NCBI GenBank assembly: GCA_030264375.1
Contig: JASCQW010000099.1
Location: 45,643,514 to 45,707,513, forward strand
Length of the DNA stretch: 64,000 bases
Source: Carcharhinus longimanus
Taxonomy: Eukaryota
Direction: 5' to 3'
The notes below the pieces were generated by a model. The model worked only from the letters and a program-made list of their open reading frames with translations. It did not search any database and had not been told where the DNA came from. Positions 370 through 28,491 of the stretch are shown here, piece after piece. Each line of letters begins with the position of its first letter. The first letter of the stretch is position 1. The position numbers were made by a program, and so were the translations under genes.

Positions 370-675
370 AAGAAATAGAACCAAGAAATCAGGACATTTG
401 GCCCAACATGTCCTCATTATATTTTTTCTCCACACTTGTCTCCTATGCCATCTCATGTAGCCCCCTCAGCATATCCTTCTAGGCTTTGCTCCCTCCTGTG
501 CTTATCTAGCCTCTCCTTGAATGCATTAGTTGCTCCCAATGGTACTAACTTCCACTTTCTAACTTCTCTCTAAGTCAAGAAATTTCTCCTGAATTCCCCA
601 TTGGATTTATTTGTGGCTAAATTATATTTATGGCCCTGAGTTCTGGTGTCACTAGCAAGAGGAACCATTCTCCCC
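370..675 (-). mobile_element. Old CR1-type LINE 3' fragment
   Basis: The reverse complement near 560-595 reads like the CR1 ORF2 C-terminal RRNFFTQRVV region, with a degenerate tail at 370-410. Confidence 0.55.
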
Positions 676-3600
676 ACATGCTGTAAAAAGGGGTTACAGG
701 CTCCTTGCATCCAACTGAGCTGCCCATGACACTACACTGCTGCACTGTGGGAACATGCTGCATTGCTCCAATATTGTCCAGCCTGAGTCAGAAGGTTGGG
801 TGAAATGGGATCAAAAAGAAATTTGGGCGAGTAGGAGGGGAGCGGCAATCCAACTCTGATTACTAGTCTATGGAAGTTCCAGTCCAATATATATTGAGAT
901 GTAATTGTGTTGTTTGACGGCATCTCCAATAGCCTTTGTTTATGCACCACTATGATGTGCAAAAGAATGGCATTATATAATGTTACAAGTCACACCTCAC
1001 AATTGCATGATGAGCATTTTAAAAATAGTGGACAAAGCAGTTTATTTTTTCCATGGAGGGGCAGACATGTTCAGTGCTAATAGCTTTGAATAGGAGCTAT
1101 TCAATGACAATAGTAGATCTCCACTTGACCTTGCCATCTACAGAGCTTACTCTGCATCCCTAATTGGATGGCGAAAGCAAAGATGATCCTTTAATTGCCT
1201 GCCTCCAGAAAAATAGTGCAGACAGGGGACCTAGATGCTACTGAGGTTGGGACCTATAAATGGGCCTGTACCCATTTAATAGTGATGTTGGTAAAATTTC
1301 ACCTGTTCAGTCTGTTTCTCCCTTCACACCTCTTCTCTCAGATGCTCTCAGACCAGCTGAGCATTTGCAGCATTTTCCTTTCTATTCCTTGATGTGAAAA
1401 TCTGAATTTTTTTTTGTGTTCAGAGGTGAAATTTGGTAATTCTTCACAAGACATGATACAGAATATTTATTAGATAGGTTTCACCACTGGTTATTGTCAA
1501 TATCCATAAACTATTATGATCTTTCTAGATTCTCTACATCAATGGAACTAACATAAACATTGCATTCAGCATCTATGACATTAAAAGAAGTTTGAAATAT
1601 ATAAAAAAAAATTTTGAAGAGTAGGCACTTGTCAGAATCAAGTTTTTTAGGGTTCCTAAAAAGCATTTATTTCTAGCACGCTCTTTTTATTTCAGATTTC
1701 TTGTATCTGCAGTATTTTACCTTTGCACATCAAGGAAACAATGAAATTAATCAAACCAAAGAAAGAAAATACTTGAATATTTCAAGACCATAAATTATTG
1801 CAGCAGCAATTTAATTTAAAGTTTGAACACAGATTAATGTGTCAACAACAACAATATCTATTTGATTTGACAAATCTCAATTGAACCTTAAAATAAGACT
1901 GCAATGGTATCTATCTTGTATCAAGTGATCAAGTCAGTCTTCAAATGGTGGTTTGATCAACTGCTGATTTTGAGACCAGAGGAAGGAAAGGACTAATCAC
2001 TAGCTCATATCCCTTTGCACAAACCTGTGGTCAAAGATTTCCATTTAAAAGTTTATTACACACAACTTATTGCACATACACTTATACATGTTTATTGTCT
2101 AGTGTATTTTATATATGTGTGAAAATATGCATGATTAGTATGTGATTTCCACAAATATAAAATAGGCGGACAAACATGCATGCATAAATGTGGGCATACA
2201 AACAGATACCTGTGTGATAAACTTCTATTTGTAGTTTCATGTTCAAGTCTTCTAATTCCATGTGTAAATCTTAATGCCACTATGAAAAACAAGCAGAAGA
2301 AAAATATAATAGCATGAGGGGCAAATAAATTATAATTTATATCTACAATTGTCCTATTTCTGATTTCCTTCATATTCCTGCACCTGCCACTGACTTTGTC
2401 TCGGCCATAAACATCTGCTCGTTCTACAGATCTCCCCACTTGATTCTTGCGCCTCCAGGTTTCTGACAGGACTCAACTTATAGCTGTTGCTTATTTTCCT
2501 CCTTATTTTAAGCCCCTTCCAGGCTTCTATTCGTTACCCAGGAGATATATTTGTGCATAAACGCATGCACGTATATGCAACTGGTATCTTTCATTTTAGT
2601 ACATTCAGTTACAGGTACTAGTTCTGTTCTATAGCACTGCTCATTTGCAACAACCTTTTGTGTTCTAAAGCTACAACTGTTTTTAGAATTCATTCATGTG
2701 TCAGAATTAAATGGCTTGCCAATGTTAATTTGATGGAATGCAAAGAAAAGGATTAAAAAAAATGTTCTGAGTGTTGACTGTGCCTACCAACAAGAATACA
2801 AATAGGTGCACTTAGCCACAAAAAGAACAAAAATGAATTGCTAAGAAGAAACCTGAAAATTGAAAATTATTGGCTGGGTGTAGAAATGTATTCTTAATTT
2901 TGTTTCATTTTTAACATTTAAACTGAAAGATGTTCATTAACAAGTTTAGGAAAACCAGTTTTTCCAATACATGTGATCATAAGCAAATGTTGAAAGTTGT
3001 GAAATTAGAATAATCTTTGTATTAAATATACAAAACATTTAGATAGATGGTTATATTATTATCTTTCACATACCATGGCTAACTTCTTTTAAAGATGACA
3101 AGTGATGCCTGTTTTGCTTTCAAGAGAGTTGCTACTTGTACCAAATGCTTTGTCCTTCCTGTGTTCCCATGTGGTCACCTTTTGGTTCATTTTCTCCTCC
3201 TGTATCTGCAGTGAGAAAGTTTATTTTCTCACTTGCTATTGGTTTGTGTGAGAATTTCTTTCCGTTGGCTGCAATTCCCATCTGACCTACTATGATACAA
3301 ATAGTTGCTGAGAGCTATGTCTTCAAACTCTATTGAGTTCAGGAAGGTTTTTTCCAGTACCAGTTTCTGCTGATTGTTATACTTCCAAGTGTCATAAATC
3401 TAAATTTTATGAAGTCTATTGAAGAAGCCGTGAAGCATAAAGACTTCCACAGCTTGAAGTGTTGAAGGATTTACAAGGATTATCACAATTCTTTCCATAT
3501 CTAAAAGACAAGTCACATTGATATTGCAAACAGGTACTCTTCATCCAGATGGATTTCTTTTTCCTTTCTGATGCTGATGCATCTGCCATGTACTTCTGAT

Positions 3601-4489
3601 ATTTGTCTTTTTTAATAACTCTTTGGCTTTCAATGTTTTTCTTATTTATCTCAGTGAATGAGGCATTGAAGTGGAATCACACTTCGGTACCAAACTTTTA
3701 GCAGAAAAAGGATTTTCTTTTCATCAGCACTCAGGATGCGAAGAAGCAGTCAAAATTCTTCTTGGAAGTCTATATCAGGATGAGGATAGACTTATTTTAG
3801 GAATAAAGAAGTCATTAGGCTGAGGCACTGCTGTGACATTAACTGGAACCTATAGAGTTGCAGATGCTTACAGCCTCCCATTTCGGTGAACGGAACAGGA
3901 AGTGAAATCTGTACTGAGAAATTGTGCAAATGGACTGTAGAATGTCCTAAATCTGCTCCACTTTATTTTCCGTTAATCCTAGTGGATTCAGTATATGCTG
4001 CTTGAAAGGATTGAGAGGCAGATACAATAGCAACATTCAAAAGGTTTCTGGAAATTTACGTACGTGAAAATGAAAAGGCATTTGTAAAGCCACGGGGAAG
4101 GAACAGGAGAAGGATCCATTTGGATAGCCTTTGCAAGGTAGCAGCACAAACACAATTGGCTGAATGGCATTGTTCCAAGTTATATTATCGAATTACGTAT
4201 CTGACAAATTAGAAAGCTAAAACAGCAAGGCCTCAATCTTATGATATCCCCTGAACTAAACAAAGTGAGAACAGTAAAAGCGGACAAGGATCACAGAAGG
4301 GTGATCAATGGAAAAACAATAACTTCTTTCATTTCAAATATACATTTTCAGTAGTCAAGTGCATTGTGTCATGTTGTTCAGGTTTCTAGTGATTTATTTT
4401 TGATGGGGTATTCATTTTGTTTTCAGGCTGCACAGGTATTGACAAAGTTCAGAGAACATTTTAAGTATATCAGTGCATTTTGTTTCCTA

Positions 4490-4680
4490 CCGCATCATTC
4501 TGACTTGGAACTTTATCTCAATGACGCTGAGTCAAACCTTGAAACTCCCTCCATACACCACATGGTCTACACCACTTCAAAAAAGTGCCTCACTACCATC
4601 TTTTCAAGAACAATGAGGGATGAGTGACAAATTCTGGGGTGCCAGCAAGTCTCTCAGCCCAACAATGAAAACAAAAATGA
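4490..4680 (+). mobile_element. 3' end of a CR1-clade LINE (tail shared with the SINEs at 14829 and 27645)
   Basis: ctgacttggaac...gagtcaaaccttgaaactccct...caccacttcaaaaaagtgcctcactaccatcttttcaagaacaatgagggatg...; a diverged match to the reverse complement of 21250-21480. Confidence 0.6.
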
Positions 4681-6732
4681 TAAAAGATTTCAATATTTGA
4701 ATAAGTGCTTCAGAAGAAGTTATTTAATGTTCATATTGGTCATTATCCCAGGAAGCTGTCGCTCTCAGACCCAGTAAAAATGTTGTCAGGATTCAGATGG
4801 TTTTGTAACCTGAGTAAAGTGGACTGCCTTTTGCTCTGTTTTAAGCTTCCACTATCTTAACAAAGTGCCTGTTAAAGATGCCTAAACAGGTACAAATATT
4901 CAAGATTAAAGCTAACTTTATCCAGAGTGCTTTGTTATCAAGGTAAAGTTAATTGTCCACTATTACTCTCCTTCAGTAACTGGCTGCACCTGATAGCAGA
5001 AAGGTACCAATTGGAATATTCTGGAAAAAAACCTTTTAAGCAGTGAGTTTCCAGTTTCTGTTGGATTGGTCTATTGGTCGCATAATTATTTATTTAGTAG
5101 CTTCTTGAAACGTGTTGACATTTTCTAAACAGTCACAAAACTGCAGCTGAAAGTATTCCTCAAGGTTTGAGTTAAATGGCACCAGCCACCCTTGTTTCCT
5201 ATATATCAAACTCTAACTACCTGAATTGAATTGAACAATATAATGCTCATCTGGACTGTATCATACATTTTTTTATGATGCAGGAAAATACTGAGTAGCA
5301 GAAGATTGACATTCTGAAGCTCACTTTGTTCTGGACCACCTTTTTTATTGTTCACAACACAATTTTTTCAATGCTGCTGAACACCGCTTGCTAACACATG
5401 AGGAAGTAGCACAATGTTTTGTTAAGGAAGCTGATTGTAGACCCGTACAATGCTTTATTACTCAAATTCAAGGCTACCCAGCCTAAGTAAATAAAGAGAC
5501 TTTTTTTTAACAAGTAGAGCATGTCATGTTCTTTAACTTGCTTAAACAAAACTGATGAAGATCACACATTGGTACTGGAGGTAAAACCTTGTACTTAGCA
5601 ACTCAATCGGTATTCAGAAAACTGTGCAGGCCTACTCAGCACAATCCTAATGTTGCCTCATCAATTAACTGACATTTCTTGCCAAGAAAGAGCTATTTAT
5701 CACCAGCAAAAACATTTAATTTGAAACCTTTGAAAAAAAAATTAACTTCTGTGAATCTCTTTCCCACCATTCTGGCACCTTGATGATACAACTGTTAGTT
5801 ATGACAAGAGAAGGATAACCATTATTTCCCTGATTCTAATGTTGAGGGTATTGATGAAGAACCTTTTTCCAATTTGTTCATTATAACGAGTAGCATCAAT
5901 TTTAAACTGTATCAGAACATGCAAAACTCCGCCCTCCAATAAGACTGGGACCTAATTATATTCCTCCCATCATCTCGGGGTACTTGTTTTCAAAATTGCC
6001 TCCCTTTCTGTCTTCAGATCTACCTTCTTGAAAACTTGTACGTATTCATTGCAGTGGATAATGAATTTCCTTATGTTTTCCTTGTATCATTTTATAAGTT
6101 TTCTAATTTTATAGAAACAGCCATTAGCTGTTAAATTATCCATTGCATAGAAGGTCTGTCTAGCTTATGATTTGCTAGTACAGCTTTCAGCATGGCTGCT
6201 CCAATATTGATCTTATCATCTGCATTTTGAAACTTCTTGAATCTTATTCATGAAAGGTTTTGGTTAATCCAAAACCAGGTTCTGCCATTGTATGCATTTG
6301 AACAAAGTGCCATCGTATGGTCTCCCATGAAATCTACATTTGGGTCTTTAGTATAGCAGGGCTTCCAGTAACAGGTTTCAGTGTTGGGAAAGAGCACTGT
6401 GCAGAAGAACAGGTTTGCCTGTCCCTGCAGGGAGCAATGTCTTTGACAAGCTGAGGGGCAGAGCCAGATACTGAGAGGCGAGAGTGAAAGCAGCAAGAAT
6501 GAGTCCACAGCTTGTGAGCGGCAGGAGCTTAGAGCAGATTGAAGCCCTAAGATTGGCAAAGGAGTCAGGGAGAGAATCAAAAACTGAGTCAAACTGAATG
6601 GCAGCACCTGTGTCTGAGAAGCCTCATTCATGAGAGAATAGGACTGCAGCCAGGAGCCAGGCAGTAGAGCAAGCATGGTGACTGACTGTATTGATTAGCC
6701 AAGGCCCCGAATAAGAAAAAGATCTGGAGCAT

Positions 6733-6985
6733 CATAGAACATAGAACATAGAACATTACAGCGCAGAACAGGCCCTTCGGCCCACGATGTTGCGCCGACC
6801 AGTTACNNNNNNNNNNNNNNNNNNNNNNNNNNNNNNNNNNNNNNNNNNNNNNNNNNNNNNNNNNNNNNNNNNNNNNNNNNNNNNNNNNNNNNNNNNNNNN
6901 NNNNNNACCACGGTTCCCTAGATCTACCAAAACCACCATGCCTGACAGGGACATACCTATCAAGGACTCGCAGTAGCTGCTCCAT
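6733..6985 (-). mobile_element. Young CR1/HER1-like LINE, mostly hidden in the N-gap 6807-6906
   Basis: (catagaa)3 tail plus acagcgcagaacaggcccttcggccc lies left of the gap with CpGs intact. Right of the gap the minus strand gives EQLLRVLDRYVPVRHGGFGRSREPW, typical of CR1 ORF2 after the APE domain. Confidence 0.8.
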
Positions 6986-7884
6986 CGTCAGTGAATATTC
7001 TCTGTAGCTAGTTTGTTTCTGAAAGTTATACTTTCCCTTGACAGTTTATACAGTTATGATACTGGTGGACTTTTTTTCTTAACCTTCATGCAGTATAGAT
7101 TATGAAACCACACAATTCCTCTTGGCATAATTGGCATGATTCCACAAAACAAGCATTAGGTTATGACAGACAAAACAGAACAGTGCCTGGTTGAGATAAA
7201 ACAGATGGGATAGGAACTTGAACTGCACCTGCCCCGCTAGGGAGGCTGAAGCAGCTGCAGTTCCAGCAGAAGCACAGGATGAAGCTGAGAGTTGAAGCAG
7301 TGATCAGAGAACTGCTTCCAGTGTGCCTTCCTTTAATGTAACAGGGGATGCATGACATATCCCATTATTGATACCATGCCACAGGGTGGGAAGCTGGATA
7401 GATTTGGGGGAAGACTGGAGATGTTCAATAACCTGGTGGTTGAGAATGGGTTGGATATAGCATCCAGTGGCATCAATGAGAGGGAGTCCACAGAATTTGT
7501 GATGGAACATCTGTACAGAAAAGCTTGGCAGGAAATATTGGAAAAAGTTGCAGATGCTCAAAGAGGTTTGTGGCAGATTTTTGACATCCAGGCATTAGTT
7601 TTTAGGGACAAGAGTAGTCTTTCAAAGCTACAGCGTAAGTTTTATGATTAAAAGCAAACCAAAGAAAAGGACCTGGTCTCTGTATCCCTGGATCTGGTGA
7701 AGTTGTTGACCACATTGCCTTCCTGGATCTTGCTTCAGTTCGACCAGGTATCTGCAGCTGAAAGATCGCCTTGCTGTTGCGTTGAGGGATGAAGATTTTC
7801 AGAGGGATTTAATGAGACTCAACAGTGAAAACCCCAATTGTTTTCTTTGACATGTATACTTATTCTCTGGAGCATTCGCAGGAT

Positions 7885-8810
7885 GGCAGGCTGTTACTAG
7901 TGGGGTATTGCAAGAATGAGAATTAGCTCCACAATATGTATAAATAATTTAGATGTGAGGGCTAATTGTAATATTTCCAAATTTGCTAATGACACCAAAC
8001 TGTGTGGGAACATAAGTTGTGAGGAGAATGCAAGGAGGCTTCACAGGTACTTGGACAGGATAAGTGAATGGGCTATAATTTGGCAGATGGTACATAAATG
8101 AGTAAGTGTGAAGTTACTCACTTCGGTGGTTAAAAAAAACAAAAAGGTAAAATATTTCTTTAATGGTGACAGAGTAGAAGTGTGGGGGTCAAAAAGGACT
8201 TGGGTGTTCTTGTTTATGACTCTAAAACTTAGGATTTAGGTAGAGCAAGGATTTTTTTGTTGCAGTATATAGAACTTTGGTGAGGCCACAGCAATTTTGG
8301 TTCCCCTATCTGAGGAGGGATATACTTACCATATATCACGTGAAACACAGGTTCACCAGATTAGTCCCTTGGATAGTGGGATTTTCTTATGAGGAAACTG
8401 GGTCTGTGTTCCCTAGAGTCACCAAGAACAAGAGGTGGCCTTATTGAAACTGATTTTTTTACAGGGCATTATAGGGTGGATGTATATGAGATGTGTCCCC
8501 GGCTAGAGAAAGTAAAATGAGGGGACATAATCTTGGGTTAAGGGGTACACCATTTAAGACTGAGAAGAGGAGGAATGCCTTCTTCAGAGGATGGTGAATC
8601 TTTGGAATACTTCACACCAGAATGCTGTGGAATTCAATCATTGAGCATATGCAAGACAAAAATTGATACAATTCTGGAGGTGAATAACATCAAACAAATG
8701 GAGATAGTAAGGGAAAATGATTTTGAAGTAGATGATCAGCCATGATCTGATTGAATGGTGGAGCAGGCTCAAAGGAGTGAATGGCCTCCTTTGTTCCTAT
8801 ATTCTTATTG
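7885..8810 (+). mobile_element. 5'-truncated CR1 LINE (RT C-terminus plus 3' UTR), degenerate
   Basis: Reads INNLDVRANCNISKFANDTKLCG...RRLHRYLDRISEWAIIWQM (FADDTK motif decayed), with 3' end gatcagccatgatctgattgaatggtggagcaggctc...cctatattctt. Confidence 0.9.
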
Positions 8811-10849
8811 TATCATTCAGAGCATAGGGTAAAACTAGACGTTTAAGACCAGGAAAGAAACCATGATCAGGGAGTTGGTGGGAACGTAATCCTCAAGCTG
8901 AAGAGGCAACAGAATAAATTACTGCACAACAAGCTCAAATCCAATTCTTGCTGCCGTTGATTGAGGACATATCGTCATGACAGGATATGTCCAGAGTATA
9001 CTTCAAAGAGGTGCTGGAATTCCAACAGGGTTGGGCATTTCCAGTGAAACTGCCCTCAACATACACTGCAAACATCAAGCATGATAACTCCGTCTCCAAA
9101 ACCCCATTCCTCATCCAATATCAGAAGATACAGGCCTAGCAAAGTAAATGAAAATGCTGAGGCCCTCAGCTGGATGACTGAATATGGAAGACAACCTACT
9201 TTTGCCAGGTCAGAGAGGATTATAGTAGATGCCATGCCCATACCTCAAGAAAAGGCAGCATTCACACACCAATCCTCTGTAGAATCTGGAAATGGAATCA
9301 TCATAATTTCACCAAAGCAGGAAGGTGGTTTGGCATTGATCATCACACCCATAACATCAGATGTAGAGCTGGAAGTCAAACTCAGAAAGCCATTCCCACG
9401 GGGGAAATGCTTGATGCCAAAAGTTGAGTGAATGATTTGAGGGCAAGGAGCCCACTTAACAGTTTGGTGGAACCTGAAACAGTAGCTGACAGTAGTCTAA
9501 GTGAAGAGGAATCAGATAGTGATAGGACATCCTGGAATGTGTGTGTCAGGGATTCTGTGAGTGCATCTGTACAGTGGCTGACTCTAGTGTTAGTAGGAAA
9601 TGCCAAGATGTCTGACAGGGAATGCTGCTGATCATATGTTCCACTGGAGACTTGATCAATTTCAATCCCTATATGGCTGATCCATCACAGAGTCTGGGTA
9701 ATTTTGGCAGTGCTTGATTAGAAGGAGGGCTATGATGGTCATCTTGAGCAAGTGCTGGATATCATCCCAACCCATACCATTTGTCCAGATTAGTGATGCA
9801 CAAAGGGAATGTTCCCACCAACATGGACTTGAATCTGCTAGCTGTTGAATCTCAATTGAACCAGCTGATTATGCAGTGGCTTAGTAAGCAGTCATTGTGT
9901 GATATGTCTCATTGCTGAGACGGCAAGGCACAAGTTGGGAAGCGTTTTTAGGGATCCCCAGCAGCAGGTGGCGATATTGAAAAAAAAATACTGAGGAGGG
10001 GAACTGGTTGGCCCATGTGCATCTCTCCCTGCAGGGAGCAGTGTCTTTCACAAGTTGAGGGACAGTGCCAAATTCTGTGAGATAGGGAGAAAGCAACAAG
10101 GATTAATTCAGGGTGTGTGACAGGAGCCTAGGGGAGTTTGAATCTCCTCATATTGGCTGTAGAGACTAGGAAGGATCTGGAAACCTAGCCAAGCTACCTT
10201 GCAACACTCTGGAGTCTGAGAAACCATGAGAGAATAGGACTGCAGTGAGGAGCTGGGCAACAGGATAAGTCTGAATAAGCCTGGGAGTTGGCTGTGTTGA
10301 GGAGTCATTGTCTTGTCTAAATAGGGTAGAGATTTGAAGCAGTGATATTCTAAGTTTGTTTCTTGGACTTGCACTTTCCCTTGAGAGTTTATACAGTTGT
10401 GACGCTGGTGGGATAAGGGAATATTGACTTTTTTTAACCTTTGTTGCTGTTTGGGTGCTTAATCCCTATGTTGCCCTAGCATCTTGAGCTACCCTGTTTG
10501 TGCTATAATTAGTGACTGATCACTGACTCATTCCATGAACCCTGTCATTCTTTGGGGTTGGCTTTTTCTCCCAGTCATATCAGTACAATCTCCACTCATT
10601 ATCCAAGTAGATCTGACTCTTATGTGCATTAATCAATTTCAATCAGATCATTCTTTTAAGTACACACAAACGCCACCCTTCTGAAGCTTCAGTGGGATCC
10701 TCTCATACATGGTGCACAAGCTGTTCATTCTTGTTAGCTTCAGGTCTGAACTATTCTGAAAGGCTAACTACAGCTTGCTAATTTTAGGAAAATGGGATAC
10801 TAAACATGTCATGTCAGCACAACTAGTGCAATCAGTAAGAATGTGAAAG

Positions 10850-10975
10850 GTTATCAGAAGATAGGCAGGGATGGGAAGTTGCGATTCAAACTAGTTCAGT
10901 CATGATCTTATCCACTGAGGATCAGGCTCGAGGGGTCAAGTGGCCTACTTTTGCTTTTAATTCCTATGTTCATCT
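10850..10975 (+). mobile_element. CR1 3' tail fragment
   Basis: ttcagtcatgatctt...caggctcgaggggtcaagtggcctact...ttcctatgttc, homologous to 58270-58365. Confidence 0.7.
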
Positions 10976-11299
10976 AAGCAAAAGAGATCAAATCACCAAT
11001 AATGTGCGTTAGCCTCATGGAGCAGGCACTGCAATGGGATAATGACCAAATTCAGGCATGATCCAATTTCATGCATTCAAGGTTCCAAGATGAGTTGGGA
11101 TGATAAAATCTTTGCAAACTGATTTCATATTTCTGGAACAGCAACTGTGCTTGATTCTAATTATTTGTTCTCAGGATGGGTGTGATACTTGCAAAATTAC
11201 ATTTATTGGCTCGCACCAGTTTCTCAAAGAATGGTAAAGTTTTCCTTTGAAATTTTACAGTTTTTGTTCTGAAAGTGTTTTCACAATCATGTTAATGGA

Positions 11300-11460
11300 A
11301 AGAGCTTGTATTTAAATTGTGCTTTTTGTGACTGCAGGACTAATAAATTGTCTGAAATTGAAGCGTAGTATGAAGTGTAATAATTGTTGGAATGGAGGAA
11401 GATATTGTGCAAAGTAAAGCCCCACAAATGGCAGTGATGATGAACACCCTAGTGACCTGT
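11300..11460 (-). mobile_element. Ancient Deu-domain SINE (SacSINE1-like) fragment
   Basis: Weak reverse-complement similarity to the 56830-56960 fragment (ccccacaaatggcagtgatgatga; cttgtatttaaattgtgcttt). Confidence 0.35.
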
Positions 11461-13075
11461 CAGCTTAGATTGTGACAAAGTTTTTGACTTTGTTTTTAAC
11501 TGACAACTTCTGAATTAAAAATAAGAGTGCTACCATTGCATCAAGTTTCATACTTGAAGGTAGGGAATGCTAGGATTTTGACCCAGTGATGATAAAGGTA
11601 CAGTTATGTGGCTTTCTGGGAATGTTATTGTGATACTACTCCAAATATGGCTGCATTTCAAGTAAATCCCATGTACTGGCCTCAACAACCATCTCCAGTG
11701 ATCACCTGAATAAAGAAATGCTTTCGGGATTCTGTCACAAACTGGCCGTTCAAAACCTTGTTTGTACACTTGTCCTACTGCTTTAGTATAGTTGAAACAT
11801 ATTGGGAAGGATTTAATATGGTGGCAAAGGAAACAATAATCTGGTTGCACCCTTGCTGACCTGACCTCTGGAATCACACCTACCCAAGCTCCAGGCTCTC
11901 CTGAGGATATTTAATTGCTGCGCTATTAACTGGGGTCAAGAGCAAGGGTGGATAGGTGTCCACAAGGTCTGGTTTCTGTGGGCTGCACTTTCCTGATGCT
12001 GGATCCCTTAAATGGGCATGCAGTGCCTGAGAACTCCTCTACAAAGCCTGCAGCCAAACCAAACAGGATTTGTTGGATGAAGTGTCTCCTCCCTGCCAAT
12101 GGTTGAATGGCAGTGAAATGAGACCCTGATGTAGCCTATTCGGAGCCTCAATTGGCCTCTAGGCACAGTGGCCACCCACAATCCCTTCAGCTCTGGACTT
12201 AATAGGGGGAAGGTAGCTGCACCTCCACACTGTACCCCCTGCCCCTGCAGTCCCCTCCCCCCCACAAATCACACAGCCCCTTAAATGTCAACCATTGTTT
12301 CTTACCTTTTCTGTGACGTGATTTTGGGGCTAAACAGCCCTACCTTGGCTAAATGATTGTTAGATTTGATCCTCCTTACATTAACGATCAGGCCTGTTGC
12401 TCACCTCTGCCCTGCCTCTGTGTTTTGATGATTTTCTTATGATACCATGGCCACAGTTCAATTGAATTTCAGCACGATCACGAAGATTTCAATTCAGCAA
12501 ATTTGGCAATATAGCTCATCATTTTTGTACTCTTGGTTGCCATCTTATATTTGAAAGTTTTTAAGTTCAGTGATAATATCTTGCGTTTTATTCAATCTGA
12601 ACTTGATTTGCTATATCGAAGCAAATGCAAGTCTTCTAACGTTCCCTGTCTTATCTTTTGCACTGATGACAAGGATTTGATAATAATTCCAGCTTTTTTT
12701 GGTGAAAAAATGACCACATGGGGAATATTTTACAGAGGACACAGCTAGGCAATGACACATGATAATGAATAGAAATGAAGTGCAGGCATTACTTTTTTTT
12801 CCCATGTTATGTGAATCATAATTTAGAAACATCTAATTATTATGCCTAGAGGTGAGTAATCTTCCTCATCTTATAGTTTTGTCATGCTTGCCTTTCCAAA
12901 ATAATTTATAATTATTATAGTGCTATGGTAAAGTGTATCATTCTGATGGCAATATATATACTTATTCTTTCTTGCTTGCTTTTTGATGGTCAAAGGCCTG
13001 CTGTCATATCTTTTATTTGTTATTGCATCTTTCTCTCCTTTTAGCAGCATGTTTGCGCTAAATTATTTCTGATGT

Positions 13076-13139
13076 TTGCTAACATGCCACTAATGCTTAC
13101 TAACCTTTTACATATTTTGCTTTTATTTTGCTGGCAAAG
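13076..13139 (+). promoter_or_regulatory. Branch point, polypyrimidine tract and UGC-containing acceptor region of the microexon
   Basis: TACTAAC at 13098-13104, ACTAAT at 13089-13094, a T-rich tract with TGC at 13118-13120 and 13129-13131, and the AAG acceptor. Confidence 0.7.
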
Positions 13140-13166
13140 TTGCATTGATGAAAGCTGACTTGCAAG
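13140..13166 (+). CDS. NRXN1: 27-nt alternative microexon (neurexin SS6 insert) encoding VALMKADLQ between LNS5 and EGF-C
   Basis: ttttattttgctggcaaag|TT GCA TTG ATG AAA GCT GAC TTG CAA G|gtagat. Phase 1-1 and frame-preserving: G|TT gives Val and G|GG joins the EGF exon. A perfect TACTAAC branch point sits at 13098-13104. The peptide matches the recalled Nrxn1 SS6 insert. Confidence 0.9.
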
Positions 13167-13573
13167 GTAGATAGCTGTGTGTTTGTACAAAACAAGACTG
13201 AAATCTATGTTTGTGCAATACTTATACAAACAGCACATATCTGCTTTGGAACTCGATTGCATTCATGTCAAAATTTCAGAATCAGATCAATATTTTTAAG
13301 AAGTATTGCCTATATGGGACTTTCAGTCTTGAATGTTTCTATATCAGTTATTTTAGTATGTTGAGTACATTTGTTTTACATTCTTCTTTGGATTCTGGTT
13401 TCCACTAGTAACTGTTTTAGAAACGTAAAGTTATTTTCTTCATTCTGACATCCAACCTAACCATGTTCCTTTCTATGTCCAATTATCAGTTGACAGAACG
13501 CATGCAAAACTCATTAATATAAGACTAATGATGTGCTTAGGCCAAAATGCATGTTTTGTCTGTTCTAACTTAG

Positions 13574-13693
13574 GGCCAAGCACAACCTGCCAAGAGGATT
13601 CTTGTGGAAACCAAGGTGTCTGTCTACAGCAGTGGGATGGCTTCAGTTGTGATTGCACTATGACTTCCTATACGGGAACCCTGTGTAATGACC
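13574..13693 (+). CDS. NRXN1: Alpha-neurexin exon encoding the third EGF-like domain (EGF-C), (G)[39 protein letters not shown](P)
   Basis: Acceptor ttctaacttag|GG and donor GACC|gtaagt define 120 nt, phase 1-1. The six-Cys EGF pattern is nearly identical to the recalled mammalian NRXN1 [40 protein letters not shown]. Neurexin family is very secure; the paralog call rests on closest recalled match plus the upstream VALMKADLQ microexon. Confidence 0.93.
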
Positions 13694-14750
13694 GTAAGTA
13701 CACAAATGGGTGTTTGGGATGTATCATGCTGTTGTGGTTCCAAAATTATTGCATTGCTTTGAACTTTGACAAATTATAATGCAGCCTGAAGTTGAAGGAT
13801 TTGTGCAATAATCCAATGAGTGTGGGATCATTTGATAAAGAGGTTGATTATGAAGGGCAAAATGAAATGCTGAAACCAATATAAGGTGCTGCTGATCTAA
13901 TTGTTTCAGGTGCAATGAGTGGTGCTTAATAAAAATATTGCTGAATGTGGTTGTCCAAAAGTAAAAAATGTATAAATATGGCAGTGTTCTGTAAAGTTTG
14001 TTTGAGAGTATCTTCCTAATTTGATGTTGCCTAACAGTGTCTTTCTGTGGTATTATTCTGTGAAATTAGCTAAATGAGAAGCAGTGGTGAATAGAAGTCT
14101 AGTTAGTGAAGGTAGATTGTGTGAAGTGCACTGACACGTTGAGTAACGTGTAGGAAATATTTAGCTTTCCAGAGCAATACACTATCACATTGTTAACTGA
14201 TCTTTGGCTCAGTCTGCTTCTTTCTTATCCTGATTGCAGCCAATCACCTGACTCTGCTGCTCTTTTCCAATACTCAAGGGATGATTCTAACCCTGATTGC
14301 CACGCAGACAGGAAGTTAAAATCATTAGTGGATTTCCCATTATCAGCTCTCTTTGACACACATGTGAGATTATGACCTGTTAGCCCAGTCCTCCTTTAAA
14401 TTTGCAGAATGGGCTCCAATGATGACATTATTCAGGCCTGATTATATTCCAGTTGTGGGCCTGAGCAGGGAAGCTCTTGTGGCTTTCCTCTGCAAGGTCA
14501 GAATTCAGAGCCAGAAGATGTCCAAAAAGATAAGACCACATTTTTCACTTTCTTGTAGGATCATGAACACCAAGAAATGCTCCCCCCGGCCTCTCAAAGA
14601 AGATCTAGGCCTTACCTACCCAGGACTTCCTCAGATGATCAACCCACCTGGCATGTTGGGAATTATTACTTTGGTCATTGGCTGCCAGCCTTTGTCATTG
14701 CTCACTCACCTGCCAGCCACTGATTGCTGGTTACAGGTAGAAAATTAACT

Positions 14751-15780
14751 GGGGGTGGAATTTAATGCCCTCCCTTTAGGTATGTTTGGAGGCAATGGAG
14801 TATTTAATCAAGCGGGAGGCTGTAGGTAGCATTGATCATAGTAGTATTATCACTGGATTAGTAGTTCAGAGGTCCAGTCTAATGATCTGGGGACATAAGT
14901 CAAATCCCAACATGGCAGCTGCTGGCACTTGAATTCAATTCATAAAATCGGAAATGAAATCTAGTCTCAGTAATGGTGATTTTGGAACCATTGGTGATAG
15001 TCATAAAAACCCACCTAATTCACAAATGCCCCATTAGAGAATAAAATCTATCTGTGTGTGATTCCAGTCCCAGAGCAAGTTGGTTGACTTTTAACTGCTC
15101 TCTAAAATAGCTTAGTGAGCCATTCGGTTCAAAGACAATCAGGATAGGCATCCAATGTTGGCCTCGCCCTGAAGTCCGATTAAAGAATAAATAAAGTATG
15201 GTGACCCTGTCACCTTCCTTCCTCTGCCCGGATTAAGTCCAGGGTTGAAAGACAGATTAATGCTTCCTACCCCAGTGCCAATTGAGGTCCCTAAGTGAGC
15301 AATTAATGTCTATTTAAGGGTTTCATCCCACTGTGACTGGTATTCATTCACTGACAGCCAAGACAGTTACCGTGCAAGAAGCTTGAAAAGGAAACCTTGA
15401 GTTTGGTTGCGGCTCCCAGGGGATCCCCTGAGTACCTCTGAATGAGGGGCCTGGTATTCACAAGAAGGGGCTGCTGAGAGCTACCCCCTGCCCTTTCTTC
15501 CAAATCTCTGTGCCCCCACTAGCCAGTGATGCACTTTTTGCAATCTTCAACCTACACTTACCTGTAGCCTAGATCCTGCATTGCCAGCAGCTACCATCTA
15601 GTGGCAGTATTGAGCAATGAGGAACGACCGGCTCTTGTTTAACTCGCAACTCCCGGAGCGCGGAGATGGACTTCTGGAACCTCAGGGAAATTTTGCCACT
15701 GACTACTTCAGTGCTTTTCTGGCATTTAATATGGTAGGCCTTACCCAAAGAAAGTGTCGCACCAACATGTCAAGTCTCCA
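14751..15780. mobile_element. Non-autonomous DNA-transposon (Harbinger-like) relic with a nested SINE
   Basis: Begins gggggtggaatttaatgccc. The internal ccaattgaggtccctaagtgagcaattaat is shared with 40171-40200, and the element is locally GC-richer. Confidence 0.5.
14829..15195 (+). mobile_element. tRNA-derived SINE with CR1-clade LINE tail
   Basis: Head tagtagtattatcactggattagtag...caaatcccaacatggcag, colinear with 27645-28008, ending aagaataaataaa. Confidence 0.8.
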
Positions 15781-16472
15781 ATGATGTAACTAAATTGCAG
15801 ATTTAACTCAGGATTTATGACACATTAAATCTTTCTTTTACCATCATATTTAATGATGTTAGATAAATATAATTTTGAGAAAGTTACTGAAATGTTAATG
15901 TTCGTTGCATAATTATAAAAATTGCAAGATCAGAAGACGTCAGAAAGCATGACATTGAAGCCAGCCAGCTTCTCAAAGTATTGTTTCACAACTCCCGGGA
16001 GAATGCACCTGATTCTGTATTGTACATGAAAGACATTAATACATTACAAATACATAGAACAAAGTACAAATAATGGGCTTTTGGCTTCTTGCGAGAGACA
16101 GTGAGTGTGATGCAAGCATTTTAATTAATGAAGTGGGTAAATGTTATGGATGGTAATTTCTTTCAACTACGTTTCTTTGAAAAAGTAGGGAAATAATAGA
16201 TGATTTGAAGATTGTTAACTAAACAACAATTAAGAAACTTTTTTGTTTAAACAGGTTTATTACTTTCTGAAATAAGTTACTCCACATGAAAGCCTAACCT
16301 TACTAAATTTCCAGACTTACTAAAAGAATGCTCGGCAGAATCTGCTGCCACGAAACAGGATGAAATTTTGATTTGATTTGTGTCATTGAAGAGGCTCAAG
16401 TTTAGACTAAACAACTCTCAAAAAGAGGAAATAATACCTTTGACCTTTACAATCTTACGATTGGTACTCATT

Positions 16473-16660
16473 GGGCAGGATTTTCCATGCTTCGGAGTGG
16501 CAGAGGTAGCTTACCGTTGCCAACAGCGGGATCTTCTAATCCTGCCGCTGTCAACAGGGTTTCCCATTCTACACATCTCCCTCACTGGTAAGAAACCTGT
16601 GGCAGGGGTTTTTCATCAGCAGGACCGGAAGATCCCGCGAGCGAGAACGGCCAGAAAATA
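16473..16660. mobile_element. Short palindromic MITE
   Basis: gcgggatcttctaatcctgc (16526-16545) is inverted to gcaggaccggaagatcccgc (16619-16638) at 17/20, with termini gggcaggattttc / gaaaat. A related decayed copy lies near 36586-36690. Confidence 0.65.
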
Positions 16661-19600
16661 AGTATTTGTGAAAGAATGCTGTGTGGTTAGATATTTATTT
16701 TTAAAAAGTGGCCCTGATGATGGCAAATATGGGTTTGTTTAGCGGGGCCTGGATTTTTCCATGTGGCATAGAGCTTTAACTCCACAGTACACCATGATTT
16801 TCTGACAGGATTTCCAACTGGAAGTAAACCCGGTTAGCTGGCTTAGCTTCCAGTCAGGTAGGAACCACTCCCAGAGCAGGCTGCAGCCACTCCTAAGCTG
16901 AATGCTCTTTCAGTAAGCTCATTGGTCAAGCTTTAATTGGGAGCAATTTACTACGAGTAACAAACTTGGGGAGAGGAAATAAAAAACTCTTCCTAATGGT
17001 TATTTAGTTAACAGTTTTTAAATCTTTGATTATTACCCTAGTTTTATCCAACAAATTTAAAGGCGTAAGGAATTATCATTCATTCTATTTATCCTATTAA
17101 TTTATTAAAATAGTGAGAATGTGGGTGGGTAGGATCTGATCCTGCGGAGGGGAGAGTTTGTATTAAGTGTTCGGTGTAATGTAATTGCTTTTAAGTCACA
17201 TTTGTTGTTGAGCTTTTGAATTCCTTGAGATTAATAACCAGTAATTAGATGAACTGTCTAAGTCTAAGAATGCCATGTCTAAGTTTCAAAATAAAAATAG
17301 ATTGCTTTCAGCTTTGTTTATATATGTATGCATGTTTGCGATGTGTATACACTTTATCATGTATTATTCAGTAACAAGAAATGGAAAGCAGTTGTGAATA
17401 AGTTATATGCCATCTGAACATGAGGTGAAGCTGTGTGCCAAAATCTATCACAAATTATAAGTGTCATCACATGCTAACTGTCCTTTACTATTCCTTCATG
17501 TGCTGTAGGAACTCAATGTTAGCACTGAGATATTAACAATGACCAGCAGATGGCATTGCACTCATTTAAATTGTATCATAGTAGCTACAGTTCTCCTTTT
17601 ATCCCTGAGGTACACGTAGAATTAATAACCATGAAGACAGTCATACAAAATACTTAACCTTTTATTCCTTGCAATCTAATGCTGCAGTAAGTTCACAAAA
17701 TGATACCTTTGAAAATTCTGCTTGACTCAAGTATGTTACTTATTTGCTTATAAAAACATGAGTCAGTAAGATTCTGTTGCTGCTGTAACCAGTTGGCACT
17801 TATGTTGGCAAAAGTATGCTGCTCTTCTAAGATGTACATATGTCAGCACATTTTATAAATATTATTGATTTCCCAGTTTCATTTTCCATGATCCTTTGAG
17901 CATAAATTGGAACCCAGGAAAGGAAATAACACAGAATTCAGCATCATCACTACAGAGCTATTATTATTGAACACAGAAACAACTTCTAATTCTTCCCTTG
18001 GCCACCAGTTAGACTAGCTGAGTCCATGAATACAATGTGCACAGTCATAGGCGTGCACCCAATTCATTCCATGTTCTCGAATAATTTGGAGTTGAATGTT
18101 AAATGCAAGTATATACTTCTCTAAATAGTGAACTAAATGATCTTAACTGGAAAATATTGCACCATCTTATGTTGTGAAGTAAAAGATATGCTTTGTCTCA
18201 GATGCTTGGTAGGTTTGTGATGAAACAATGCAACTATAATTGCCTCATTTAATTTTGTATGTGTGCCATTTGTGTTAATGTATAACATAATAAAAACATA
18301 CGCATGATTTCACTAGAAATAGTGGAGAGAATCTGCTCCTCCCTCCGAAGTTAGTGGTACTGCAGTACAGTGAATGGATTCAATGCCTGAATGCACACTG
18401 TTTAGTTAAATGTTCATTGCTTTAACTTGTTATGTTTTATCTTAGAATGATGTCACATAGTTTGCATTGTTTGTTACAAATCAATATACCAATTAAAAAT
18501 GTAGGCATTAATATCTCTGTTAAAATAGAGGACAAATAAATATAGTTTAAAGAAATCAGGAGAATGAAAACCCATGAGTCACAATGCCAGTGCTTAAACT
18601 TCTTAGAATTTCAGGGGTCAATTGGAGGGCACAACACATGTAAAGTTCTCATATATCCATTCATTGTTCATATGCAGAATAACTGCTGACATTAACTAAA
18701 ATTTGAAGCCTGAATGATATGCACAGTTGAATGAAGTGGGTAATGATGTTAAGTGTACTAATCTGTGTGAAGAGAACTCACACCAAATGAATGCTAAAGG
18801 TAAAGGACACCCACAAGCTGGCTCCCAGGCCTGTGGAATATTTTCAGCAATTTCTGCTTTTTAAAAAAAGGTTTCCAACATCTTAGGTATTTTGCTTCTG
18901 CAGCAAACATAAAGCTACTTGAGTAATCTAGAATGTTGCAGTTGGAGAGTGGGCAAATAGTGAGTGGAACCAATTTCATCAATCCTGCAAGCATGCAGGG
19001 ACTGAGGCGTTTCTTATCCAAACAGTGCAAAATGAAAGGGAATCTGGGGGGAAATGATCCCAAATGCTAAATAATGTGCAAAGTATGGTGCATTTTAAGC
19101 CAATTTTCTGAAAAAAACTACACTTGTAACAAGAAAAGGATTATAACTGTAATTTTACCAGATGCAATGATTAATGTTGAATATCAGAACAAATGTGAAA
19201 TACCACTGAAATATATAAATGAATAAACCATGAGATTTCCTAATATATTAGTGATTTCTGTTTAACATATATCAGCAAGTTTTCTATCTTCCCTTTAGTG
19301 ATCTGTTTACAGGACACGGCTATGGCTAGTCACGTTTGCCTTATAATTACTAGAATAAACTGTGATTTACCAGTGAATTCCATGCTCAGAATTGCACTGA
19401 ATTACTGTCAGGCAGTGAAAGGACTGATCGGTTCATTGTACGTGCGTGTTGTGTGTGTGAGTGTGCGTCGGAAGTAGTTTCATTTAATTATATCCTAGAT
19501 ACATTTATGGTAAGATCTGTCACTTGTAGCGAAGCACAGTATTTGTATTTAGATAGCATCTAATGCGTGCACTCAAAATTTGTTTTTCCATTCAGGTCTG

Positions 19601-21249
19601 TGGAGATGTCCATGGACCAACAGCGCAAACTTTGTATTCCCTCCGATTCTAAGATCCAGGCTTCAATTAAATAATAAGCCACTTAGTTGTGTTTATGTTG
19701 TCAGTGGTCCTAACTATATCTTGCTTTATATTACTGGTGTCCCTTTCAACTCTACAGCAGTTGCTGTAATGCTCCAAAGTTTTACATGATCCTGACTCAA
19801 CTTCATGTTCCACATCTGGTCTATTATTATAAAAAACTGGTTGCTCTCAAAGATATTGACTGTTTTTAACTTCTTCCCATTGCTATTGAATCTCTCCATC
19901 GAACCTTTATGCTCTCACTCTTTACGATAATGTCCTAACTAGCCTCTCAGTTCCACCTGACATCCATCATTTGTTGCCCATAATCTCACATCCACTATTC
20001 CCATGTTTATATCATATTCCCAAATTGTCGCTGTGGAAACATGTTTATAGGAATTTCCCTCCCAGGAGGCTGAACATTCNNNNNNNNNNNNNNNNNNNNN
20101 NNNNNNNNNNNNNNNNNNNNNNNNNNNNNNNNNNNNNNNNNNNNNNNNNNNNNNNNNNNNNNNNNNNNNNNNNNNNNNNNNNNNNNNNNNNNNNNNNNNN
20201 NNNNNNNNNNNNNNNNNNNNNNNNNNNNNNNNNNNNNNNNNNNNNNNNNNNNNNNNNNNNNNNNNNNNNNNNNNNNNNNNNNNNNNNNNNNNNNNNNNNN
20301 NNNNNNNNNNNNNNNNNNNNNNNNNNNNNNNNNNNNNNNNNNNNNNNNNNNNNNNNNNNNNNNNNNNNNNNNNNNNNNNNNNNNNNNNNNNNNNNNNNNN
20401 NNNNNNNNNNNNNNNNNNNNNNNNNNNNNNNNNNNNNNNNNNNNNNNNNNNNNNNNNNNNNNNNNNNNACTGAGAGTTGGGGGTATTGAACTGCAATGCA
20501 CAATGCTTTATTGCACTACTCAACATCACTGCCAGATTGAATTTCAAAGATTTATCAACTTATGCAAACATTCATTTCACAGATCAAGATTCAGTTTGTC
20601 CTGAAATAATCAAAACATTACGGGTTGCAAGTTGAGCATTGTTTGGCAGAATGTTCAGCCTTCTGATCAACTAATAGGCCAACATTGTATAGCAATGTAT
20701 TGCGCAATATCTATATCTATATCTGTGTTCATGGAATGATTCTTGAACATGTACCTTTTCTTTAAGATGTGATTTGGGAAATAATACACTGCTGTGCAAC
20801 ATAATTATGAAAACAACCCTAATACAATCAGTTTGCAAAACAATACAAAAGGAATTGTGTTAGTTTAGGGAACATTCCAGACATTGGATATTGTATGTGG
20901 AATGAGCTATTAAAATTATAATCAGGGGTCAGGATTAATCAGTGAAATGTTATGTACATAAAAATGGGTGATTATAAACAAAGATAGGAAAGATCAACTG
21001 CAGATTAGGTCCATTAACAAGAAAAAAGTATTTTACCATCATACTGAAAATTCCTCTTAATGGAGATGAAATTGTTCCTTCAACACACCCAGTTATATGC
21101 TGGCTGTAAATTATACACCAGATGTTGTTCCTTCCATCAGTGCTTTCACCCCCAGGAAGACATTCATGAGCCTAAGACTCGTATTGTTCGGAATGCCTTT
21201 ATCCATCTTGTATCAGTATAGTTGTTACTCGTGTCATCTTCTTGCAGTT

Positions 21250-22290
21250 TTTTTCTTCATTCACAGGATGTGGGAATTGCTGGCTAGGATAGCATTTGTT
21301 GCTTAATTGCCCTTGAGAAAGTGGTATTGAGCCGACTTATTGAACCACAAGAGGTCCATATCATGTAGGTACACCCATGGAGCTGTTAGGAAGGCAGTTC
21401 CAGGAATTTGACCCAACAACAGTGAAAAAACGGTGATGATTGTCAAGTTAGAATGGTATGCATCTTGGAGGGGAACTTGCAGGTGGTGATGTTCCTATAT
21501 CTGCTACCCTTGTCCTTCTAGGTGGTAGAGGTCATGGGTTTGGAATATGATGTTAAGGGAGCCTTGGTGAGTTGCTGCTGTGCATCTTGTAGATTGTACA
21601 TACTAATGTCACTTTGTACATGGTGAAAAGGGAATGAATTTTAAATTGGTGGATGGGTTGGCAATCAAGCAGGCTGCTTTGTCCTAGATGAGTTTTTTGA
21701 GTGTTGTTGAAACTGAAACTTCCCCATTGTGGAGAGTATTCAATCACACATCTGTAGATGATGGGCACTTTTTGGGGAGTCAGAAGGTGAGTTACTCATT
21801 AAAGAATTCCCAGCTTCTACAACCTGTCGTAGTAGCTGCAGATTTATATGCTGACCCAGTTCAGTTTCTGGTTGGTGGTGACCCTGCAGGATGTTGACAG
21901 TTAGGGATTCAGCAATGATAATGTCAGTAAGTGTCAAAGAGAGATGGTTAGATTCTCCCTTGTTGTAGATGGTCATTCCCTGGCATTTGTGTGATACTCG
22001 TGTTAATTGCTCCTTTTCAGTCCAGGCTTGAGTGTTGTACAGGCCTTGCTGCTTATGGACACAGATTGCTTCACTATCCGAGGAGTCACAAGTAATGCTG
22101 AACATTGTGCAACATTAGTGAAAATGCCCATTTCTGACCTTATGATAAAGGGAAGGCCATTGATGAAGCAATGGAGATTGTTGGGCCCAGGAGACTACAC
22201 TGAGAAACCTCTGTGATAATGTTCTGGAACCAGGATAATTGACTTCCAACGGCCACAATCATCTTCCTTTATGTTAGGTATGACTCCAAG
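21250..22290 (-). mobile_element. CR1-clade LINE 3' ~1 kb, degenerate
   Basis: The minus strand gives QQGLYNTQAWTEKEQLTRVSHKCQGMTIYNKGESNHLSLTLTDIIIAESLTVNIL (RT C-terminal QQDLDNIQAWADKWQ-like), with the 3' tail at 21250-21330. Confidence 0.85.
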
Positions 22291-25200
22291 CATTGAAGAG
22301 TTCAGAACTTCCATTTGGCTGTCATGGTAATGCATCTTTTATTTTACATGAACAATACGATATCAATGATATGTTTTAATTGCCACTATGCTTACAGCTG
22401 GTTAAGAAATCCAGGGAGGAAAACTTTGTTCATATAGTACCATTTTGCTACTCAGCCAACAATCAATTCCCTGAGAAGAGACAGTATCATGGGCTATCGC
22501 CTGTAGATTTGAAACCCAAGCAGTTGCACAGGTAAACTCACTACCCCAAAAGGGAAAAAAAAGTATGGAGTGCTTAGGGGAGAAGAAAAGGAGACGATGC
22601 AGAATATTGTGCTACAGTCATAACTAGGGTGGAGTGAAAGGTCAGCTTAACATAAGGTAGATTGGCCAATACTCCTGTGTTAGCTGAATAGCTGGAGATT
22701 CATGTAAGCAGCGAGAGGTAAATATAATACCTCTTGCCCCCTGGCCCCCAGGTTCTACTTCACCATGGTCTCTGAGACCGTGCCTCCTACCCTCCTCATC
22801 AGGGCCTGTCAGCTTGTTACCTGGTGAAACTGAAATATGTACAACATTAATATCTAGCACAGCTTCTCACTCATCGCCTGCTTGTGGCACTGGCAGTAGC
22901 CACTGCTGCTCTCGGAACGGGATTTGTCGCATCCGTCATGAGTGAATAGGAGTTGTTCTCATTCTAACAAGCACCCGCTACCCCCACCACCACCATTTTC
23001 ATTATTTCCCAGCCCCCCAGCCAGCCCAGGAATTTTGAAATATTGAGCAAGGTGTTAAATTGCATTGTGGAGACTATAGCCCAAGGCTTTCTTCAGCTGA
23101 TGTCAAAAGATGAGTGTTTATATGTTCCTCAATCACTCTCAGTCACCTCCACCCGTCTGTACTCTTGGGATGCTGAAAACAATTGCAGCAGTTGTCAGTT
23201 AAATATGTGAAAAGAGACATTGATATTTAGATGCTAGAACTGAGACATCATTTTGATCCTTCTGATTAAGCTGTACACTGAATTTAATCGTACTCCCTTT
23301 TTAATTTAGCACTGTTTGGTTCGCCATCAGTTCACTCCTCATCATGTTTAATTTTCTGTTTTCAATCCCAAATTGTCAAGATTTCCCAGTTTGAATTTTT
23401 CAAAATACACTTCCAAACTATTCAGCTGAAGGCACATTTCCAGCAATTATTCCACATTCATTTACAGAGGAAAAAAATCAGTGACATCAAAAGATTACAA
23501 CAACAGCATTGTGAAAAAGAAGTGTTCTGTGATTTCTCCATTTGAATTCTTTATTAATTCATTATACCTGCGTCCTGATCAAATATAGTTCTTTCTAAAT
23601 ATTAATCTTTCTTTTGTTCCACATATCCCTTGTTTTACCGCAGGCATATAGTGATATACATTATTAAAATAAGAGAATAAATGACATAAATATTCCCCTT
23701 TGTTATATTTTAAAGACCTGGATTATTTTTAAGCTCTATTTGTGCAGTGTGATTTTAAAATCGCCTGCAGTGATTATTAGCAAAGGGCTAGCTGTTCTCT
23801 GTATTGACACAGCAAAAGCCTGAGCTAATAGAGAAAAAAACTTCCATTTTAGTTTGTCTCCTCATGTCTCCTTTTCTGTTTCAACACTCACCCCCCCCAC
23901 CCATGCAATATTTGACTTGCATGAAGGTAGTCACTNNNNNNNNNNNNNNNNNNNNNNNNNNNNNNNNNNNNNNNNNNNNNNNNNNNNNNNNNNNNNNNNN
24001 NNNNNNNNNNNNNNNNNNNNNNNNNNNNNNNNNNNAAAAAAATGTGTTTGTTTCCAAAGTCTTCAAATGATTTATTTCTGAACCTTTCCATATGAAACCC
24101 CTTTCACAACTATATTAATGAAGGAGTTAACCCATCTATTTTGAACAGGTACTAGCTCGATTAAATAATATCAAAGCATTGTGATAAAATGTGTTCAGCA
24201 GTCATACACTAATATTGCACCAGATTCTTCAAGGCTCGAGTGTTTTATTTGCTCTCAAGTTGTAGATTCCCCAGCTGTCCTGCATCCTTTCCTGCTTGAG
24301 AGAGCAGACAGGCAATTTGTTCCCAGGCGACTGTTGATGGGCACTCTCACCCAGCTGCTAAGAATCATTTGAAAAGTGCCTGGGGTAGCTTGCCTGCCAC
24401 TTTACTTTCCCTCCCTTCGTCCCTATAGAGAAAGACCTGGCCTTAGATGAAGAACTATTATGTGAAGAATTCTGGGTGTGAGCACATTCTTTACCACATG
24501 TGGATCAGCACCTTGGAGCAAAAATCTGCTGCACTGAAATACAGCTTTCATTTCTTTATTTTTGCTTCTGATTTTAAATGCTGAATGCTTTCTACTTTTT
24601 CAATATTCACCTTGCTACCCAATTTCTCAGTTCCCTGGGTCAAGTGATTGCTTGCTATTATTTCCAAAGAATTAATCATCATTTGAGGGTTGATTGACAG
24701 CAGATTTCAGGGGCTCTTCCCATAGATTGCTTGCCAACAATGTGTGTGATAGTTGTGACAATCTGAGGTGCAAAGGAATCATTGACAATAGCTTGAATAG
24801 AAACAGAAAGGTCAGTCAGTGGCTTTGACATCATTGAGAGAATGCAATTTATGCAATGTTATGCTGTAACACCATCCAGACAGCCAATCACTACTTATAC
24901 AAATATTTGTCATTGTGAGTCCTTGAATGAAATTCTGTTCTTTATGTATTGCTGAGTCATAGTGTTTTGGGGGGGAAAAAAACTCTATGCTCTTGGTTAA
25001 AAGTTGTTGGAAGATAGTTGGCATTAATTAAGAAGAATCTCATGAGAAATGTTTAACATATGACAGATTATCAAACAATTATCCTTTTAGCTTGTCACCA
25101 GCAAAGGTGCTTGTTCGACTAATGTTTGAGCAGAGACTAGAAGAGTTGGGAATGTGGCTCAAATAGTTGCTGAATTAGTGATAATGCAGTCTGCCCGTAT

Positions 25201-26219
25201 TATCCTGGGGAACTGACGGTAACATATCATCACCTGATTTTCCAGTTTGATGTACTCTGCTCAGTTCCTCGGGGCAATGCAGGTTGGCTATCTATCATTA
25301 CTTAATGCTGCACAAAATGCAATTTTAATGCAGTCAGATTCTACTACAATTTGAATTGAGCTCTGTTTATGACTTTGCAAGGTAAGATGTGAATCACTTG
25401 CCACAGAGTACCTAGCCATTGTCCTATTTTTGTAGCCATGGTGTTAATAATTGACCAGTTCAGCTTCTGGCGAATGGTGTTGTCCGCCCAAATACTTATC
25501 CACTGATATGCTTAAATTACTCTATCAACTCAAAATCACTCTGCCCAGAGAATCAGGGGAAATTTTAACCTTATCTGTTTGTCCCAGACCAGGCAAATAG
25601 TTAACTTTTTCAGTTGGTTTGCCTATTGACATCTCCCACCAATCCCATGATCATCTATTTCAGCCTGCTCTCCTCAGCAGTTAGCTACCTTAAAGCCTGA
25701 AGCCAACAGAGTCCTTCTTTAATATGCAAATCAGGGGCCAATTATGTAATCAAACTCAACCACAGTTTAACTGTGATCTGAGCTGGAAAGCCTTTGTGGG
25801 AAGATGCCTAAACATATCATAATTGTATTTTCCTTGTATGGACAGGAGGAACAGCAGTATTTCTCGGTCACAAAAGAAAAGTTTACACTTGTCCTGTGCT
25901 GCAGTCCCACCCTACCCATCCCACCCCACATTCTTTCTCTACTTGAAAATCCTCCTGAAAATTCCTTCCCCATGATCTACCTTCTTTCCAGAGACCCTTT
26001 CTTTTAGTTTAGGCTGGTGGCTATCTGATATCCTGCCTAAAGCCACTGGCCAGCTGTTGCTTCCAATCTGTTTTGGCTCGACCATCACGAATGGTCAGTA
26101 GATTAGTCCAGAATTTAATACCACTTGAATCTTATGCTGAGGTCAAGTAGTTTGCACTCACCCCTGTTTGCTCAATTCCTTTTCACAGTCAAAATTAGGG
26201 TTGCTAGGTCCTGTATTAT

Positions 26220-27310: not shown

Positions 27311-27327
27311 GAGCCTGTTTTTTTTTG

Positions 27328-28008: not shown

Positions 28009-28010
28009 GT

Positions 28011-28490: not shown

Positions 28491-28491
28491 C

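Follow-up and report, generated by a model that had tools for sequence, protein, structure and literature searches.

Among described systems, the closest to the element analysed here is alternative splice site 6 (SS6, also AS6) of the alpha-neurexins, which was described by Treutlein 2014 and Schreiner 2014 (as cited in PMC12665717 and PMC4489214). According to the review PMC12665717, SS6 is present in Nrxn1 and Nrxn3 alpha and absent from Nrxn2. The supplement of PMC4489214 lists the assay peptides used for the mouse proteins, which are GCEVALMK for NRX1-AS6(+) and GCEVALTK for NRX3-AS6(+). In that study, the AS6 insert is placed where the L-shaped ectodomain has its hinge. Mouse NRX1alpha without AS6 is reported there to show threefold higher adhesion to LRRTM2, and adhesion to neuroligin-3 is slightly greater with the insert. 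SAXS and electron tomography are reported to indicate that SS6 relieves the restricted flexibility between L5 and L6 (PMC13212319, citing Liu 2018). Inclusion of SS6 is given as rare in mouse (PMC4489214). The human counterpart, exon 17, is described as mostly skipped, with variable usage in fetal pyramidal cells (PMC12642523).

The window, i.e., the whole stretch of DNA that was analysed, has a length of 64,000 nt, and its features are collected in Table 1. The microexon follows the last LNS5 exon and precedes that of EGF-C, and its frame agrees with both. It is flanked by AG on the 5′ side and by GT on the 3′ side, and reading in phase 1 yields VALMKADLQ. The donor matches the consensus at 7 of 9 positions. 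On the + strand of the window, TACTAAC occurs twice, and one of these copies is the branch point of Table 1. Outside the window, 17,693 nt 5′ of the microexon, lies the last LNS5 exon, whose 3′ end is at G000:C99:45638959 and in phase 1. As this exon ends in phase 1 and the microexon comprises 27 nt, the included and the skipped forms are both in frame. The next alpha exon (LNS6) follows near G000:C99:45992355. The rest of the window was searched for other neurexin exons and for the beta first exon, and none was found. The preliminary description had reported the position of the exon, its length, phase, peptide and AG/GT borders, the branch point and the distance to the EGF-C exon; we obtained the same result for each of them.

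Table 1 Features of the nrxn1 locus in the window (positions are those of the window)
Feature	Position	Strand	Remarks
NRXN1 SS6/AS6 cassette microexon, VALMKADLQ	13140..13166	+	27 nt, phase 1-1
Consensus branch point TACTAAC	13098..13104	+	branch A 37 nt 5′ of exon
Predicted SRRM3/4-type 3′ splice site	13105..13139	+	pyrimidine tract U-rich, not adjacent to acceptor
Intron between microexon and EGF-C exon, 407 nt	13167..13573	+	GT...AG
Neurexin-1 alpha exon for EGF-C, the third EGF-like domain (120 nt, phase 1-1)	13574..13693	+	PF00008
3′ portion of the intron (17,693 nt) that follows the last LNS5 exon	1..13139	+	
First part of the very long intron that follows EGF-C	13694..64000	+	

The host gene is nrxn1 of an elasmobranch, as judged from sequence identities. 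The EGF-C exon shares 98% identity with Chiloscyllium neurexin 1a, and among solved structures it is best matched by neurexin-1 alpha in its third EGF domain. A search of the same genome with Chiloscyllium neurexin 1a returned one locus, at 44.65–46.40 Mb of contig C99 (1.75 Mb), with 87–98% identity. The host exons match NRXN1 of zebra shark and skate in 58/58, 62–63/64 and 39/40 residues, the last value being that of the EGF-C exon; these matches support the earlier characterization of the genome as shark-like. For the last LNS5 exon, all 58 residues are identical in NRXN1 of zebra shark and skate, compared with 42–43 of 58 in NRXN2 and 40–46 of 58 in NRXN3. NRXN2 was considered as a host because the EGF exon carries a T at one NRXN2-like position; it is ruled out by the exon identities and by the mapping to C99. 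Paralogous exons were located elsewhere in the genome, nrxn3-like ones on contigs C112 and C142 and nrxn2-like ones on C187, C180 and C122. The exons of both genes are split across contigs, so gaps or scaffolding errors affect the assembly at nrxn2 and at nrxn3. In the PDB, NRXN1alpha chains were matched. The entries 3qcw and 3r05 differ by 9 residues somewhere between EGF-B and EGF-C, a difference which we take to be SS3.

Several other elements were noticed in the window. An open frame at 60267-60932 matches the Pfam family PF09004 (ALKBH8_N) with an E value of 6e-11, and dispersed repeats adjoin it (37460-37733/60755-61020 and 60498-60709/61516-61728). This family presumably often marks LINE remnants in fish genomes, and the frame is likely a retroelement fragment. 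Two likely transposon remnants were also seen in the long intron, an imperfect palindrome of 185 nt at 27326-27510, self-complementary to 76%, and a pair of inverted repeats of 148 nt (39347-39494 with 40315-40458, 89%). Exact short duplications flank 100-N gaps at 60314-60363/60464-60513 and 31268-31306/31407-31445; such duplications are more typical of scaffolding overlaps than of real repeats.

The peptide of the microexon recurs in NRXN1 of other vertebrates. Among 120 listed neurexin matches, 11 carry exactly these nine residues at the LNS5/EGF-C junction, all of them from birds and lizards (swift, penguin, three geckos and an anole), one is a cyprinid neurexin-3b with a related insert, and 108 are free of an insert there. 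In the thorny skate (Amblyraja radiata), the insert of XP_032881149.1 and XP_032881152.1 is identical to that of the window. The zebra shark (Stegostoma tigrinum; XP_048392679.1 and others) and the brownbanded bamboo shark (Chiloscyllium punctatum; XP_072436962.1) have the SS6 insert with M for L at residue 3. The chondrichthyan NRXN1-alpha isoforms listed from RefSeq, which are predicted (XP_) gene models, include the insert in 7 of 32 cases and skip it in 25, in a sample that is biased by a query without the insert and covers 15 of the 294 members of the cluster. Four of the including isoforms are from zebra shark, one is from bamboo shark and two are from thorny skate, and each of these species has included as well as skipped models. 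Zebra shark isoform X1 (XP_048392679.1), which represents the chondrichthyan NRXN1 cluster of 294 members, contains the insert. The insert was absent from all 13 listed NRXN1 alpha isoforms of lungfish and from all 14 listed nrxn1a alpha isoforms of cyprinids. In these two groups the exon may be dispensable, or it may only be unannotated.

The insert peptide, its position and the host-exon matches confirm the identification as neurexin SS6 that was made in the preliminary description, with NRXN1 as the host gene. The peptide had also been proposed to be identical across lineages. This is correct for skate, birds and lizards, but the insert is not invariant, given the M at residue 3 in zebra and bamboo shark. 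The idea that the exon is hidden and easily missed by automated annotation has to be dropped, as the RefSeq models of skate, zebra shark and bamboo shark contain it. Hence, the shark exon is real, already known in mammals, and already annotated in sharks and a skate.

Stop-free stretches of 27 nt between AG and GT are common; the + strand of the window has 139 of them, so that the pattern alone means little and could suggest a chance stretch within the long intron. Three of the 139 pass a filter for pyrimidine content plus donor, and the branch-point motif is found only at the exon of Table 1. The exon also matches an independently annotated insert exactly, and at the exact intron position. 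The probability that an AG-27-GT stretch codes for exactly the skate RefSeq insert by chance is about 5e-11 in a base-composition model with about 18,100 intron positions. With this value and the matching inserts of birds, lizards and skate, a chance origin was ruled out; we regard its probability as negligible. It is very improbable, too, that the exon is orthologous but vestigial, with its sequence conserved and its splicing-in lost in this species. Such a loss would agree with the rare inclusion in mouse (PMC4489214) and with adult human cell types, most of which lack the exon (PMC12642523), and inclusion in this species is predicted from gene models of its relatives. The acceptor, the 7/9 donor, the perfect branch point, the frame and the peptide are, however, all intact, and in related sharks and a skate the exon is included in some RefSeq isoforms.

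In an exon of 27 nt, splice-site and enhancer sequences take up most of the length. The exon could therefore be spliced and yet be conserved mainly through RNA-level constraint, i.e., by overlapping splicing signals and not by selection on the nine residues. The first half of the insert, which varies by lineage and paralogue (ALM, AMM, ALT and GFT), is in line with this explanation. On the other hand, KADLQ is common to NRXN1 and cyprinid NRXN3b, length and frame are constant everywhere, and the insert alters ligand adhesion in mouse, as reported in PMC4489214. On balance, we consider RNA-level constraint as the main cause unlikely. Very probably, the exon is orthologous to the known SS6 cassette of neurexin-1, and some of the neuronal alpha-neurexin-1 mRNAs are likely to contain it. 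Inclusion in this particular species is likely, judging from the gene models of the related sharks and the skate.

The region upstream of the exon resembles that of regulated neural microexons. UGC motifs are located at −22 and −11, the acceptor is AG, and 6 of the final 9 nt are purines. Between the branch point and −10, the sequence consists of 65% T and 77% pyrimidine, and about 10 nt lie between the end of the tract and the acceptor. Neural microexons under the control of SRRM3/4 range in size from 3 to 27 nt, and the SS6 exon, with 27 nt and a preserved frame, lies within this range. Its 3′ splice site fits the layout described for SRRM3/4-regulated microexons in bioRxiv 10.1101/2024.09.17.613571, where UGC is given for 79% and 74% of two classes and is no strict requirement. 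By analogy with these exons, SRRM3/4 acting on the UGC motifs would favour inclusion in neurons, with skipping by default, which we think is somewhat more probable than a different mode of control. A literature search for SRRM3/4 dependence of SS6 found no report; the accessible text of MicroExonator names Nrxn1 microexons without specifying which.

When included, the exon would lengthen the LNS5/EGF-C hinge by nine residues. The insert is predicted to loosen the LNS1-5 arm against EGF-C/LNS6, to lower LRRTM2 binding and to spare neuroligin binding. These effects are adopted from the mouse data, and we give about even chances to the looser arm and the altered ligand binding holding in sharks as well. 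The insert has nine residues in the exon and in all RefSeq inserts listed, whereas the discussion section of PMC4489214 says six. A nine-residue hinge insert that acts as a ligand-preference switch in mouse is unchanged between an elasmobranch and amniotes.

We also inspected the paralogues. SS6 was absent from all 158 NRXN2 records that contain the hinge; a further 15 records lacking this region were left out of the count. The 14 shark NRXN2-alpha records without the insert are from Heptranchias (11), white shark (2) and basking shark (1), and two further elasmobranch NRXN2 records lack it as well. The expectation that NRXN2 has no SS6 is borne out by these records, in agreement with the statement in the review PMC12665717. 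In the neurexin-2-like gene of Heptranchias perlo, 3 of 11 alpha isoforms carry another insert of six residues at the LNS5/EGF-C junction; its sequence is unrelated to SS6, and it likely arises from the use of a later donor site. The EGF-C exon of the genome's own nrxn2 was not found on C187, C180 and C122, where the fetched stretches consist of up to 100% N. A look-alike of the SS6 peptide on L009 is on the wrong strand and has no donor, and it was dismissed.

For NRXN3, the nrxn3b record of the cyprinid Sinocyclocheilus contains VGFTKADLQ at the same junction, twice in a duplicated record. In the genome's own nrxn3, the LNS5/EGF-C intron (G000:C112:7984138-8012951, − strand) revealed no SS6-like exon in the readable 21.6 kb (75%), as 7,196 of its 28,814 bases are N, and two nrxn3-like exons are placed on another contig. 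The best of 104 open AG-27-GT/GC candidates in this intron scored 17, compared with a self-score of 41–45. This blank may reflect loss, a gap in the assembly or misplacement.

NRXN1 and NRXN3 have SS6 at the same site, in sequences that are related, and the genome has separate nrxn1, nrxn2 and nrxn3 genes. From this we infer that SS6 predates the duplication that separated these genes. As this duplication is older than the split between sharks and bony fish, an origin of SS6 before the split of the jawed vertebrates is already implied. The preliminary description had dated SS6 to at least the jawed-vertebrate ancestor on the basis of the shark exon. This minimum age stands, but it is not new, as it follows from the sharing between NRXN1 and NRXN3. 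The missing insert in 158 NRXN2 records, 14 of them from sharks, indicates that the loss from NRXN2 is likely as old as the jawed vertebrates. Single records of hagfish, acorn worm and locust have no insert, and with one isoform each they are too little to date the origin.

The blanks in nrxn3 of this genome, in lungfish and in cyprinid nrxn1a may be annotation or assembly gaps. If they are real, they imply lineage-specific retention of paralogues. In such a scenario, SS6 would have arisen once before the neurexin duplications, and retention would differ by lineage: NRXN2 lost it before sharks diverged, this elasmobranch kept it in nrxn1 and lost it in nrxn3, cyprinids kept it in nrxn3b and lost it in nrxn1a, and lungfish lost it from NRXN1. 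We put this forward only tentatively and regard the complete pattern as unlikely. If it is true, the hinge switch would be kept in at least one alpha-neurexin, and the lineages would offer natural knock-outs to test. A literature search found no paper that maps gains and losses of SS6 across vertebrates, the original SS6 discovery papers being outside this search; the evolution of AS4 is treated in PMC3933685. Which paralogue retains SS6 in which lineage is the remaining point of interest.

In comparison with the known systems, the shark exon shows no substantive difference from neurexin-1 SS6/AS6 (human exon 17). With mouse NRX1, it shares the gene and the LNS5/EGF-C position, and insert residues 1–5 agree with GCEVALMK, which is the extent of the mammalian comparison. 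The chondrichthyan RefSeq isoforms with SS6 contain the same exon; the window has L at residue 3 like skate and amniotes, whereas zebra and bamboo shark have M. SS6 of neurexin-3 alpha occupies the same position and encodes a related peptide (GCEVALTK in mouse, VGFTKADLQ in Sinocyclocheilus), but it belongs to a paralogue. With SRRM3/4-dependent neural microexons, the exon has in common the length of 27 nt, the preserved frame, the strong branch point, the pyrimidine tract set back from the AG, and UGC between branch point and AG. The shark exon is a tidy example of microexon conservation, which confirms the minimum age of SS6 directly and leaves the date unmoved.
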